64,000 nucleotides of DNA. It comes from Trueperaceae bacterium (GTDB lineage: Bacteria; Deinococcota; Deinococci; Deinococcales; Trueperaceae). The position numbers and the translations under genes were made by a program. Under the pieces are notes generated by a model, which saw only the letters and a list, made by a program, of their open reading frames with translations, was not told the origin of the DNA and did not search any database. The stretch is from assembly GCA_965213925.1 (NCBI GenBank), contig OZ243927.1, positions 672,001 through 736,000 on the forward strand. Reading direction: 5' to 3'. Shown in pieces: positions 15,383 to 20,839 of the stretch (position 1 is the stretch's first letter; each line of letters begins with the position of its first letter).

Positions 15383-15590
15383 TGAAGCTTGACCTTTCCT
15401 CGCTCTTACAATGCTTTCTATTCTGAAGGCTTTTTACGTAACTCGAGATAACCAATTTCTCACGCAACTTCGGAGTTATTCCGATAAAGCGGGTTTTGTG
15501 TTATGCTTAAAGGTAGTAAGGTATCGCAATACCATCAAGCGACATGAAGCGGTACATGGATTGCAGCACGTCGAGGAAGGCATTTCGAGT

Positions 15591-16025
15591 ATGAGCGACA
15601 AGGAGCAGATTAGAAATACCCTAAAAACTCACGGGCTACGTTACAGCAAGCCCAGGGAGGTCATCTTGAGCTTGTTCGGTGAGCGCGACATGCATATCAG
15701 CGCGGAGCAGCTCTACCTAGAACTCAAGCAACGCGGCGAAGACCTGAGCTTGTCTACGGTCTACCTCAACTTGGGTGTACTGCGCGGCGCAGGGCTGATT
15801 CGTGAGTTTAGTGGCGTCGGCGGGGAAGCGCTCTATGACAGCAACGTTGGACCACACCATCACCTCATCTGTAAGCAGTGCGGTGACATTTTGGACTTGC
15901 CCGAGGTGATGATTCAAGAGGTGTCGCCTAAGCAATTCTTACGTGACAGTGCTGAAAAGGTCTCAGGGTGGCGGGTGGATGAGCCATCGTTGGATTTGCA
16001 GGGGCTTTGCCCGGACTGTCAGTAG
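15591..16025 (+). CDS. Fur/PerR family transcriptional repressor
   Basis: GLRYSKPREVIL, HISAEQLY, LSTVYLNL, HHHLICKQCG, GLCPDC; start refined to ATG 15591. Confidence 0.92.
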   Translation: MSDKEQIRNTLKTHGLRYSKPREVILSLFGERDMHISAEQLYLELKQRGEDLSLSTVYLNLGVLRGAGLIREFSGVGGEALYDSNVGPHHHLICKQCGDILDLPEVMIQEVSPKQFLRDSAEKVSGWRVDEPSLDLQGLCPDCQ

Positions 16026-16516: not shown

Positions 16517-17257
16517 TTATACGTAGCCCACTTCTGAACGAGATCGGTCTGCTATAACCTCTGCGAGTAGAGGATCGTACGAGAGGTAATCTGCCAATGC
16601 TAATTTAATATCTGGATGCGCCTTCTGCGCCGTCTCGATCGCTTCTGGCAAGTCGTCTGCGACGTGTCCACCGAACTGTAAGAAGTAGGGCACAGCTACG
16701 ATTTGAGCCACCTTCTTCTCTGCGAGCATCTGAACGCCTTCAGCGATGTTAGGCTCGTTGATCTCCATGAAACTCACCTGAACCGCTCTGTAAGTTGAGC
16801 GCTCGCGGATAGCTTCGGCGACTCTGTAAATGGGCGCGTTCGCCTCGGCGTGGGGCGTGCCGTGCGCCATAAGGAGCAAAGCGCAGTCGTCTTCAGTGCG
16901 CGTCGCCGCTGAACGGTCCAGGACCATCTGGACGAGCGCGGGGTGGTACTCGAAAGCGTCCGCAATACTAAACGTGAGCGTTGGATGAGCAATTCTAGCC
17001 TCTTCGATGAGTTTGGGTAGGATACGTTTAACGTAAAACCCTGAAATCAGGAAGTAAGGCTGAACCGCGATATGTGTCGCGCCTTTGCGGACGCAGCGCT
17101 CAACCGCGTCCGCTACGGTGGGCCTACTGAAATTCAAAAAGCCTGCTGTAGCGATCGGCGCGACGCCCTGCTTGCGTAAAAGCGCCGCCAAGCGAATCAT
17201 CGACGCCCCCGACGCTTGGCGGAGGCTGCCGTGTCCGACTAAAACGACCGCGTTCAT
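16517..17257 (-). CDS. sirB: Sirohydrochlorin chelatase (SirB/CbiX, two domains)
   Basis: Duplicated LVGHGS / LMAHGT and PYFL motifs; coupled to the uroporphyrinogen methyltransferase. Confidence 0.85.
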
Positions 17258-18087
17258 AGCGCGGCGCTAAGAAGGTCTGACGCAAGCTCTGCGCTTTCCG
17301 CAACGCCTAAATCAACGTCTAAATCGAACCAGCGCAGTTCGGAGCGCAGCCGCACGACGTCGCCGACGACGAGCGTGGCGGGCGCTCTGAGTCCAGCTTC
17401 GCGGACGTTCGCAGCGATGGTCTCTAAGGTCCCCTCCACCGTCTCCTGCTGAGGCGTCGTTCCCCAGCGCACCATCGCTGCGGGCGTGCTAGGCGAGCGA
17501 CCCGCTTTGATGAGTTCTTCGGTGATCGCCCCTATCCTCCCCACCCCCATCAAAATAACGAGCGTGTCCACCCCCGCTAGCGCCCGCCAGTCATGCCCCG
17601 ATTCTCCTTTAGCCGGGTCTTCGTGTCCCGCCACAATCGCCACCGACGCTGCTATGTTGCGGTGCGTGACCGGAATCCCGGCGTACGCGGGCGCAGCCAC
17701 TGCTGACGAGATGCCCGGTACGATTTCAAAAGGGATGTTCGCCTCGCAGAGCGCGAACGCCTCTTCGCCGCCGCGCCCGAAGATGAAGGGGTCGCCGCCC
17801 TTGAGCCGCACCACATTGCGCCCGAGTGTCGCCCGCTGTACCAGGAGCGTATTGATGGCGTCTTGCGAGTACGACGGCTGAACACCGTGCTTGCCCACGT
17901 AGATAAGTTCGGCGTCGGCGCGGCATTCTTGCAGCAGCTTAGGATTGACGAGGCGGTCATAAGCGACGACGTCGGCGTTTTGCAAGCGGCGCAAGCCCTT
18001 GACGGTCATAAGCTCGGGGTCGCCCGGACCTGCGCCGACGAGCGAGACGAAGCCTACTGGTGAGTTGGCTGGAGGGGGGTAAGACAT
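17254..18087 (-). CDS. cobA: Uroporphyrinogen-III C-methyltransferase
   Basis: [42 protein letters not shown]. Confidence 0.95.
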
Positions 18088-18120
18088 GTCCTCCTTTATA
18101 CTCCAAAAGTTTACAAAAGA

Positions 18121-18164
18121 TGTCAGCTATGTACTTGACATAAATTGTCACTTACCTGTAGCCT
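18121..18164 (+). promoter_or_regulatory. Sigma70-like promoter with overlapping TGACA/TGTCA inverted repeats
   Basis: TTGACA(18135)-N18-TAGCCT(18159); TGACA-TAAAT-TGTCA at 18136-18150 and TGTCA-N10-TGACA at 18121-18140. Confidence 0.55.
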
Positions 18165-18242
18165 CGGAGTCATTGAAGAGGTCACCTCGCACGTAGACTT
18201 GAAAGCGCTGCGGGAGTTGCAGGAGCACGAAGGGAAGCGTGG

Positions 18243-18326
18243 ATGAAGAAACTCGTTTTAGTAGACAACAGCGTATCGGCGGTAGCCCGGACCTTCTCCT
18301 GTTGTCGCTCCCTCTGCTGTTCCTGA
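18243..18326 (+). CDS. Cys-rich leader peptide (27 aa), putative attenuator uORF
   Basis: MKKLVLVDNSVSAVARTFSCCRSLCCS*; AGGGAAG upstream; ends 94 nt before the sulfite reductase ATG. Confidence 0.75.
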   Translation: MKKLVLVDNSVSAVARTFSCCRSLCCS

Positions 18327-18352
18327 TTGCTGATTTTTAGCTCTCAACCTAT

Positions 18353-18384
18353 CCAGACTGACCCAACCCCAGACTGACCCAACC
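18353..18384 (+). repeat. 16-bp tandem direct repeat in a C-rich leader
   Basis: CCAGACTGACCCAACC x2. Confidence 0.9.
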
Positions 18385-18420
18385 TAAGCAAACAAACCTC
18401 TTAATCTTTAGGGATGCTCT

Positions 18421-20196
18421 ATGCCTGACACCAAATCCACTAAGCCCACTAAACCTAAGCGCACGCACAAGCCCAGCGTCGAAGAGATTAAAGTTGCCAG
18501 CCGCTTTTTGAGCCAGGGCGTACAAGAGCAGCTCGACGCCCCTACTGACAACGTGGACGAAACCGGCTACCAGCTCCTCAAGTTCTCGGGTATCTATCAG
18601 CAAGACGACCGCGACCAGCGCAAGCAACGTCGTAAAGAGGGCAAGGACCGCGCTTACTCCTTCATGGTGCGCTCGAAAGCGCCTGCGGGCATCCTCTCCG
18701 CGGAGCAGTACTTGGTCCACGACAGGCTCTGCGACTCGCACGGCAACGGTACGATGCGCTTCACCACGCGCCAGGGTATCCAGCTTCATGGTGTCGTCAA
18801 GGGCGACCTCAAACCGCTCATCCAAGAACTCAACCACGCTTTAGTCACGACGCTCGCCGCCTGCGGTGATGTGAACCGCAATGTCATGGGCTGCCCCGCG
18901 CCCGAGAAAGACCGCGAGCACGCGCTGATCGATCAGGTGTGCCGCGAGATCGAGGCGCACCTCTTACCGCGTAGCACGGCGTATTACGACCTCTGGATCG
19001 ACGGCGAAAAGCAGCAAATCCCGGTTGCACCCGCCGTCTCGGAGGCGTCCCTCTCAGGCGACGAAGAGGAGCCGATTTACGGCAAGACCTACCTGCCGCG
19101 CAAGTTCAAAATCGGGGTGGCGTTTCCGCACGACAACTGCGTGGACGTGTTCACCCAAGACATCGGCATCGTGCCGGTTTTAGAGGGTGACACGCTCAGG
19201 GGCTACAATATCCTAGTGGGCGGCGGCATGGGCATGAGCCACACCGATGACACGACCTTCCCGCGTCTCGCGGAGCCTCTAGGCTTCGTTGCGCCGAACG
19301 CGCTCATCACTACCCTCGAAGCCATCGTCACTGTCCAGCGCGATTTCGGCAACCGCGAGAACCGCAAGCGGGCGCGGATGAAATATTTGGTGGACGAGTG
19401 GGGCATCGAGAAGTTTCGCGCTACCGTCCAGGAGCGCCTCAGCCACGAGATTCAACCTTGGGCCCAAGTCGGCGAATTCAGCGTAGACGACCACCTAGGC
19501 TGGCGCGAGCAGGGCGACGGGCGCTACTACTTTGGCGTCCCGGTGGAGAACGGGCGCATCAAGGACGAGGGCGAGATGCGGCTGCGCTCCGGCTTGCGTG
19601 CCATTATCGAGCGTTTCCGCTGCGAAGTGCGCATCACGGCGCAGCACAACCTCTTGCTCACGAATTTGAAGGCGGAGGACGAGGAGACGCTGCGGACGAT
19701 GCTACGTGAGTATGGCATCCGCACAAAAGAAGACATTACCAAAGCGCGGCGCTACGCTATCGCGTGCCCGGCGCTGCCGACGTGCAGCTTGGCGCTAGCC
19801 GAATCCGAGCGGGTCATGCCCTCAGTCATTGACGGGCTCGAGTCTCAACTCGACACTTTAGGCTTAGGAGGCGAAGACATCGTCATCCGCATGACCGGCT
19901 GCCCCAACGGGTGCGCCCGCCCCCACACCGCCGAACTCGCCTTTATCGGGCGTTCGCCGGGTAAGTATAAGCTCTACGTGGGCGGCGCGTTTAACGGCAC
20001 GCGCTTAGCGCAGGAGTACGCTGACTTAGTCGACCAAGACGACATCCTGCCGACCGTCACGCCACTTTTCAAGCTCTGGAAAGAGCAGCGCGAGCCGGAT
20101 GAGCACTTCGGGGACTTCTGCTACCGTCAAGGGGTGTCTACCCTGCAAGCAGCAACTCAGTCAGAGGCTCGAGAGGTCTCCCTGAGCCATGACTAA
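18421..20196 (+). CDS. cysI: Assimilatory sulfite reductase hemoprotein (CysI/Sir)
   Basis: [31 protein letters not shown] and TGCPNGC siroheme/4Fe-4S ligands. Confidence 0.93.
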
Positions 20197-20839
20197 CGCC
20201 TTGAACGTCACCGACCCTAAAGAGGTCGTCGCCTGGGCGCTAGAACGCTACCCCAACGCGATGATGACGAGCGGCTTTAACCTCAACGGTACGGTTCTGC
20301 TCGACTTCGCGGTGCGCGCAGGCTTTCGGGGCGAAGTCGTCTTTATCGACACCCTCTCGCACTTTCCCGAAACCCTGGCAACCCGCAACGCCATCGCCGC
20401 ACGCTACCCCGAAATCACCTTGACAACGCTTCAGCCTGCGCTACCTAAGAGCGCCCTACCTGCGTGCGGCACCGCGGACTGCTGCCAGGTCCGCAAGTTA
20501 GAGCCTCTACGCCTCTATCTCGCCGAAAAACAGCCGAGCGCGCTCCTCAGCGCCCGCAGCCGCTTTCAGAGCGAGACGAGAGCGCAGCTCAACACGGTAG
20601 AGGACAGCGGCGACTACGTCAAGGTGAATCCGCTGGCGCACCTCTCACGTGAAGATTTAGAGGCTTACGCCCGCGAAAACGACCTCCCCGTCAATCCGCT
20701 TTACTGGCAGGGCTTCTTGAGCATCGGCTGCGCACCCATGACGCGGGCGGTGCGCGAGGGCGAAGACATGCGAGCGGGGCGCTGGGAAGGGCAGGAGAAG
20801 ACGGAGTGCGGGCTGTGGTACGGGGATAAAGCGCTCTAG
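20189..20839 (+). CDS. cysH: APS/PAPS reductase
   Basis: [39 protein letters not shown]. Confidence 0.9.

Follow-up and report, generated by a model that had tools for sequence, protein, structure and literature searches.

A cysteine-codon-rich upstream reading frame in the leader of a Trueperaceae cysI-cysH operon: a candidate cysteine sensor behind a conserved promoter

The window analysed here, a 64,000-nt stretch of DNA (positions 672001-736000 on contig 1 of the 4.75-Mb genome G000), carries a sulfite reductase operon next to two divergently transcribed siroheme-branch genes. The genes and the features of the region between them are listed below by their position in the window.

16517-17257, minus strand: divergent siroheme-branch gene for a CbiX chelatase
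17254-18087, minus strand: divergent siroheme-branch gene for a TP_methylase (cobA-like)
18088-18172, plus strand: divergent promoter/operator block between cobA (minus) and cysI (plus), near-invariant in three species of the genus
18133-18153, no strand assigned: palindrome-like candidate operator ACTTGACA-N5-TGTCACTT, overlapping the -35 element, with an inverted repeat nearby
18220-18325, plus strand: predicted long-range helix between a purine-rich arm (~18220-18239, holding the Shine-Dalgarno sequence of the upstream ORF) and a pyrimidine-rich arm (~18304-18325)
18230-18237, plus strand: Shine-Dalgarno-like sequence AAGGGAAG of the upstream ORF (uORF), with AGGGA at 18231-18235, 7 nt before the ATG
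18243-18326, plus strand: uORF MKKLVLVDNSVSAVARTFSCCRSLCCS, 27 codons from an ATG start, followed by the stop TGA (18324-26)
18327-18408, plus strand: untranslated C-rich, G-poor (rut-like) tract of 82 nt (A25 C28 G8 T21)
18410-18423, plus strand: cysI Shine-Dalgarno (SD) AGGGA (18410-14) and ATG, with TAGGG..TATGCCTGA kept across the genus
18421-20196, plus strand: cysI-type assimilatory sulfite reductase hemoprotein, from domain annotation (NIR_SIR + NIR_SIR_ferr)
20189-20839, plus strand: cysH-type (P)APS reductase (PAPS_reduct), overlapping cysI by 8 nt

A gap of 333 nt separates the divergent siroheme genes from the sulfite reductase operon. Further copies of the promoter block, the leader or the C-rich tract were found nowhere else in the genome. 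An E-value scan of 17900-18700 against Rfam returned a chance miRNA (E 1.5) as its sole match, and a gathering-threshold scan of 14 related leaders recovered tRNA only, with neither a known riboswitch nor a T-box. On the minus strand, TATAAA lies 7 nt 5' of the ATG of the cobA-like gene (window 18088-18101), with an apparent AAGGAGG in between; despite this AAGGAGG, the mRNA of the gene may be leaderless. Two kilobases upstream, the gene of a Fur-family regulator (15411-16025) with an N-terminal extension of ~70 residues lies beside a GNAT gene.

We searched the family for the same gene and found cysI (E <=1e-60) in only 12 of 128 genomes, which belong to four genera: this genus (three genomes), g43 (six), g17 (two) and g40 (one). 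CysI of the window is 88% and 86% identical to that of its two congeners. Upstream of the leader, a -35 element TTGACA (18135-40), an 18-nt spacer and a -10 element TAGCCT (18159-64) are identical in both congeners, and the transcription start site (TSS) is predicted near 18171-18172. A promoter scan of the locus made no calls, and TAGCCT fits TATAAT at just three of six positions. We regard TTGACA-18-TAGCCT as the promoter because it is invariant in the congeners, lies inside a conserved block and has a homologue, TTGATA-17-TAGACT, that the promoter tool detected in the sister-genus locus L120; the initial annotation had likewise placed the uORF between a sigma70-like promoter and cysI-cysH.

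The promoter/operator block is identical at 80-86 of 95 nt (84-91%) among the three congeners. The palindrome overlapping the -35 recurs as TTGAYA-N5-TRTCAA at the same -35 position in all genera of the family having this cysI; L120 has its site at ~1316-1336, and L121 carries two perfect 8-5-8 palindromes (1356-1376 and 1391-1411). We read it as the probable operator of a regulator that responds to sulfur or cysteine, and as the likely principal point of control for the operon. A degenerate form of the pattern gave 44 matches genome-wide at <=1 mismatch, three of them exact; as the -35 consensus is part of this pattern, the matches do not discriminate, and we derived no regulon from them. The neighbouring half-sites in the window presumably resemble the Deinococcus radiation/desiccation response motif, with one congener deviating.

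The uORF ends 94 nt before cysI and carries its Cys codons at TGT 18300-02, TGT 18303-05, TGC 18315-17 and TGT 18318-20, that is, at codons 20, 21, 25 and 26. Four Cys thus fall within the last eight codons, and our coordinates and translation agree exactly with the 27-codon ORF that had been singled out for this cluster. The small ORF before this cysteine-pathway operon holds two runs of adjacent Cys codons (TGT TGT and TGC TGT), at least one such pair being what is looked for in leaders of this type. Its ATG lies ~70 nt past the predicted TSS and has its own Shine-Dalgarno sequence, hence the uORF would not be leaderless. Because the same AGGGA pentamer stands before the uORF (7-nt spacing) and before cysI (6-nt spacing), the initiation signals of the uORF are as good as those of cysI. 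Given this pentamer at cysI-like spacing, the ATG and the MKK start, the uORF is probably translated. The four-Cys stretch is a CTG/TGY-rich pyrimidine sequence that reads as Cys in one frame and as Leu-rich in another. By eye, both CC pairs within 18291-18320 fall in adjacent 15-nt units (FSCCR / SLCCS) with 9 of 15 positions matching in register. These units, which the repeat search did not flag, hint together with the 16-nt tandem repeat downstream that the four-Cys cluster arose by local duplication. We also considered the uORF as a RiPP-like Cys-rich peptide and rejected it, there being no maturation genes nearby and no conservation of the peptide.

How unusual such a cluster is was assessed by a census of small ORFs (10-60 codons), in which those outside long ORFs formed an intergenic-like set. 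At least four Cys in eight codons occur in 67 of 72,121 small ORFs genome-wide and in 11 of the 17,329 intergenic-like ones, and among those 11 only the ORF at 18243-18326 precedes a sulfur gene. As the leader has about three small ORFs on the sense strand, a four-Cys cluster would be expected here by chance at ~0.2%. No Cys-cluster uORF precedes sat or cysK in this genome, nor was any found in the 10 sat/cysK upstream regions of five relatives. Because the sat and cysK leaders are without such a uORF, there is no regulon-like ('ribulon') spread.

Past the uORF stop, the 16-nt unit CCAGACTGACCCAACC occurs twice in tandem within the C-rich tract, at 18353-68 and 18369-84, with no mismatch between the copies. 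An excess of C over G of at least 21 per 80 nt is reached in 0.44% of genome windows, and a G content of at most 7 per 80 nt in 0.04% of all windows and 0.12% of intergenic windows; among 689 5'-UTR-like regions, 1.45% have C minus G of at least 20 and 0.44% have at most 8 G. No terminator-like site was detected in 17900-18700, and the TTTTT at 18335-39 has no preceding stem in the leader fold. Composition, repeat search and terminator scan are all in accordance with the initial description of a C-rich, G-poor tract with a twofold tandem repeat and no hairpin plus U-tract. All 11 family leaders have more C than G over the 61 nt that precede the SD, a C-rich tract being characteristic of the family; it may serve as a Rho entry site or as an unstructured ribosome standby site. 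The Cys cluster and the C-rich tract are both real and uncommon, and neither is unique.

The genome encodes Rho (Rho_RNA_bind PF07497, 90 bits, in a 440-aa open frame), and the uORF could sense cysteine through it: with plentiful Cys-tRNA the ribosome would leave at the stop and Rho would terminate before or in cysI, whereas a stalled ribosome would shield the tract and allow read-through. Besides Rho itself, this is consistent with a tract of C28/G8 that ranks in the top 0.44% of windows for C minus G and is predicted to be mostly unpaired (accessibility 0.60-0.64 under ribosome constraints), with the lack of an intrinsic terminator and with the C excess throughout the family leaders. The same idea was put forward for hairpin-less actinobacterial Cys leaders (PMC1262725). 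However, the geometry looks unfavourable. A ribosome with its A site on the last Cys codon (18318-20) would have a footprint ending at ~18333-18339, whereas the repeats begin at 18353, 27 nt after the uORF stop and ~20 nt beyond the edge of the stalled ribosome, and about 55-70 nt of the tract would be left free. Moreover, because the tract is untranslated whether the ribosome is stalled or not, the anatomy provides no differential access for Rho, and uncoupling normally favours Rho. Three of the sister-genus leaders have their C-rich tract within the uORF itself, which is a different logic; the Cys codons are also weakly conserved. The proposal in the initial annotation that a stalled ribosome shields a rut-like site fits this leader poorly, and cysteine sensing by way of Rho appears distinctly unlikely to us.

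The leader as a whole folds no better than its shuffles (-71.3 kcal/mol, z = 0.16). In the minimum-energy fold, the pyrimidine arm of the long-range helix covers the last part of the uORF, beginning with Cys codon 21 and including the stop codon, and the helix encloses an inner 8-bp inverted repeat (18264-71 / 18299-306); the helix lacks significance (z = -1.28, equalled by 20 of 200 shuffles). In further folds, a 30-nt stretch was kept unpaired to mimic a ribosome at the uORF start, on the first or the last Cys codon, or at the stop. Under all of these placements, and with no ribosome, the cysI SD had a predicted accessibility of 0.42-0.45 in one run and 0.51-0.53 in another, the C-rich tract showed no change either, and the constraint folding of three congener and three sister-genus leaders gave no consistent rise. 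An SD-unmasking mechanism as in mycobacteria is not supported by these in silico models. Nor was an antiterminator found that covers the regulatory codons and excludes a terminator, the folds being no better than shuffles and no terminator being present.

These folds bear on a second possibility, namely that stalling on the uORF senses cysteine by another route, either an unmasking of the cysI ribosome-binding site that the folding missed or protection of the 5' leader from decay. A candidate pairing of UCCCU (18308-12) with AGGGA (18410-14) could serve the former. The Cys stretch is the 3' arm of the helix with the SD-like purine arm of the uORF, and a ribosome stalled on it would alter the leader structure. 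The cluster is rare and placed before cysI, its two adjacent-Cys pairs are of the kind by which attenuating small ORFs were picked out in mycobacteria (10.1101/834739), and in-frame TGY near the stop is enriched in family uORFs, as detailed below. Set against this are the absence of a consistent rise in SD accessibility across the six leaders, a helix no better than in shuffles, congeners with two and one Cys and the lack of spread to sat and cysK, and we regard this possibility as rather doubtful.

Compared with the promoter block, the leader evolves quickly. The leaders of the three congeners measure 251, 171 and 167 nt and are barely alignable past the promoter, with indels of ~80 nt, and their identity of 0.51-0.67, against 0.62-0.69 at cysI four-fold degenerate sites, suggests roughly neutral divergence. 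The congener uORFs whose 3' ends are homologous to that of the window end in GARCSC (two Cys) and RTRCLLPNLLS (one Cys). One TGT is common to the three congeners, and the remaining Cys codons are lineage-specific. In both congeners (leader L002 of G001, and leader L003 of G002 on the minus strand), an ATG ORF of 18 and 22 codons, respectively, spans the C-rich tract and ends at a TAG within the cysI SD, 9 nt before the start; this layout would be compatible with a possible coupling to cysI. In the window, a TAA at 18385 closes the frame through the tract.

Beyond the genus, a GTG follows the -10 (TAGACT/TAGAGT) at a distance of 6-7 nt in all six g43 leaders (L198, L200, L120, L202, L201 and L196), and the g43 uORF therewith probably starts at the transcription start, on the first base of the mRNA, unlike the SD-led uORF of the window. 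In L120, L202 and L200 it extends across the C-rich tract and stops 10-25 nt short of cysI. One g43 uORF reads MIAALSKLYMQPAAQRCC, one ends in RPCAKRCCGRPV and one in GARCR; two have adjacent Cys at or near the stop (RCC and RCCGRPV), and among the other leaders one has two separated Cys and two have a single Cys distant from the stop. The g40 uORF, which contains two separated Cys, extends over the cysI start, and the two g17 genomes have no uORF. Overall, at least two Cys in the last 10 codons are found in five of the nine family uORFs, and three have none, or one distant from the stop. The conservation of a Cys-cluster uORF in relatives, which the initial annotation had named as its check, has therefore largely failed to appear.

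A trend is nevertheless visible in the reading frame. Within the last ten codons of all nine uORFs, TGY falls in frame 15 times, in the +1 frame three times and in the +2 frame once (11, 3 and 1 without the uORF of the window), counts to be read with the caveat that the uORFs of this genus were chosen knowing their Cys and that TGN-rich frames reach TGA sooner. The six g43 uORFs, defined by the GTG 6-7 nt after the -10 with Cys ignored, give 8, 2 and 1, and the binomial value of 0.009 overstates the effect since the sequences are related. The frame bias suggests a certain preference for Cys close to the uORF stop, in a set of related sequences. A GCGATGT common to five leaders in the uORF frame (R-C) was discarded as proof of homology, as about one 7-mer is shared by chance between two ~150-nt leaders.

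The same leaders raise the possibility that the uORF matters without its Cys codons, which would be passengers: leader translation would keep ribosomes on a Rho-prone C-rich leader or couple to cysI. The GTG at a fixed place after the -10 in every g43 leader, the three g43 uORFs that reach close to cysI and the congener ORFs that cross the C-rich tract and end at a TAG in the cysI SD all argue for it. The uORF of the window, however, ends 94 nt short of cysI, and the tract frame behind it is closed, and for this locus we hold such a Cys-independent role to be quite improbable.

Farther afield, in another family of the order (G035 and G039), cysI directly follows cobA with no leader, and in a further genus a membrane-protein gene lies upstream of cysI. 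A metagenome search with CysI, from which 80 loci were kept (best identity 54%), added no members of the genus, and the nearest titled CysI contig matches are from Trueperaceae (65%), Truepera sp. (59%) and Deinococcales (59%). We also examined 148 of 160 cysI loci of other phyla. Small ORFs with at least three Cys in eight codons make up 12 of 398 on the sense strand against 8 of 431 on the antisense strand; there is no overall enrichment of Cys-cluster small ORFs before cysI across phyla. Despite this, several of the sense-strand cases form clear families. In seven Chloroflexota-type loci (L123, L041, L042, L124, L044, L139 and L127), an ATG uORF ending in C(H/R)PC(C)ICR or similar lies ~170-300 nt upstream of cysI and is followed by TAGCGGGG and a long hairpin with no Rfam match. 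In the metagenome loci L052, L049 and L062, a poly-Cys uORF at about -260 to -145 from the cysI match precedes a GC hairpin and T-run, seen by eye (the tool makes no call in L052). L053 has its poly-Cys uORF at about -247 to -148 and a terminator at 1355-1376 that the tool detected. One of these metagenome uORFs contains CCCC, and another CC and CCC. The layout of these four loci, which fall into two groups, looks like that of a classical attenuator.

Two well-known kinds of leader control offer a comparison. The tna operon has a leader peptide, TnaC, and no intrinsic terminator, with a Rho entry site after the leader ORF; free tryptophan acting on the nascent peptide induces stalling at the stop codon, and the stalled ribosome sits directly on the Rho entry site. 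The window likewise has a leader ORF and no intrinsic terminator, whereas its repeats start 27 nt past the stop and codon starvation would be the signal under the proposed model. Like the trp and his attenuators, it has a leader ORF rich in codons for the end product before the pathway genes; unlike them, it is without a terminator hairpin and U-run, a switch between alternative structures and conservation of the codons in relatives.

The closest precedents come from Actinobacteria, where the initial annotation had placed the control of sulfur-assimilation genes by Cys-codon leader peptides, and two studies agree. Seliverstov 2005 (PMC1262725) describes actinobacterial cys/cbs leader peptides with Cys codons near the stop and no hairpins, with C-rich candidate Rho sites downstream and Rho attenuation proposed by analogy with tna. 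These leaders resemble the window in having a short ORF before sulfur genes, Cys near the stop, no hairpin and C-rich sequence downstream. They differ in that they align within Mycobacterium, whereas the Cys run of the window is not kept in its two congeners, and the window belongs to another phylum, Deinococcota. For mycobacteria, Canestrari 2020 (10.1101/834739, Mol Microbiol) shows attenuation by a polycysteine leaderless small ORF, with the pausing of ribosomes proposed to do the sensing. That case and the window both place neighbouring Cys codons in a small ORF upstream of cysteine-pathway genes. In contrast, the mycobacterial small ORF is leaderless and an RNA duplex hides the downstream SD, whereas the uORF here is SD-led with no such duplex predicted; the mycobacterial device is also one of at least six loci that respond together, unlike the window, where sat and cysK have no such uORF. 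Among the papers listed by our literature searches on cysteine leader peptides and Deinococcus sulfite reductase, none was a Deinococcota report, matching the initial annotation, whose author was not aware of one in this phylum.

A broader reading would unite the family, with Trueperaceae cysI under a hairpin-less Rho-dependent leader whose uORF reads Cys-tRNA by Cys codons beside its stop. The uORF would start at the TSS in the Truepera-like genus and be SD-led here, and this species would have the most developed form, whose two CC pairs may stem from a 15-nt duplication. We judge this reading unlikely.

Cysteine sensing by the uORF through any route is a more serious contender, which we place somewhat short of an even chance. 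It is favoured by the rarity and placement of the cluster, the good initiation signals, the Cys codons beside the stop, which recur in part across the family, and the combination of Rho with a C-rich tract. It is disfavoured because the congeners carry four, two and one Cys in a neutrally evolving leader, no terminator or switch is present, the shielding geometry is poor and the device has not spread.

To the reading that the Cys cluster is incidental or at most nascent, with cysI controlled mainly at the promoter, we give about even chances. Control of cysI more likely lies mainly with the conserved putative operator that overlaps the -35. According to this model, cysI-cysH would be transcribed from the strongly conserved promoter whose -35 lies inside the palindrome-like site, the probable operator of a sulfur- or cysteine-responsive regulator. 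The transcript would then run into a fast-evolving, C-rich leader of ~250 nt carrying a probably translated uORF. The four-Cys cluster within the CTG/TGY-rich pyrimidine stretch, being species-specific, would more likely be incidental or nascent than an established attenuator. This reading is favoured because the promoter block is conserved while the leader diverges about neutrally, and because the palindrome keeps the same promoter position in sister genera. The two and one Cys of the congeners, the lack of a terminator, Rfam family or switch, and the absence of a Cys-cluster uORF before sat or cysK all support it as well. Against it stand the low chance expectation, the position of this ORF as the sole one of its kind before a sulfur gene and the in-frame TGY excess in g43. 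Also opposed are the two g43 uORFs with adjacent Cys near the stop and the Cys-rich uORFs before cysI in other phyla. In addition, the published mycobacterial Cys leaders, too, are without visible hairpins (PMC1262725).

Taken together, the Cys-codon uORF is a plausible but unproven candidate for a cysteine sensor. If the Cys codons are not regulatory, a rare Cys cluster before the 'right' gene may be a lineage-specific accident in a CTG/TGY-rich leader, and such calls must rest on conservation and not on codon content alone. If they do regulate cysI, ribosome-mediated cysteine sensing would extend to Deinococcota, in a leader that has no terminator and would have to act through Rho or protection of the mRNA, and an already-known type of leader peptide (Actinobacteria 2005, mycobacteria 2020) would have been found in a new phylum. 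The Rho-dependent reading, if true, would make it the first cysteine leader-peptide attenuator in Deinococcota. The congeners with four, two and one Cys behind a near-identical promoter would then be a natural experiment on the number of codons needed, and a series in which the gain or loss of a sensor could be watched.
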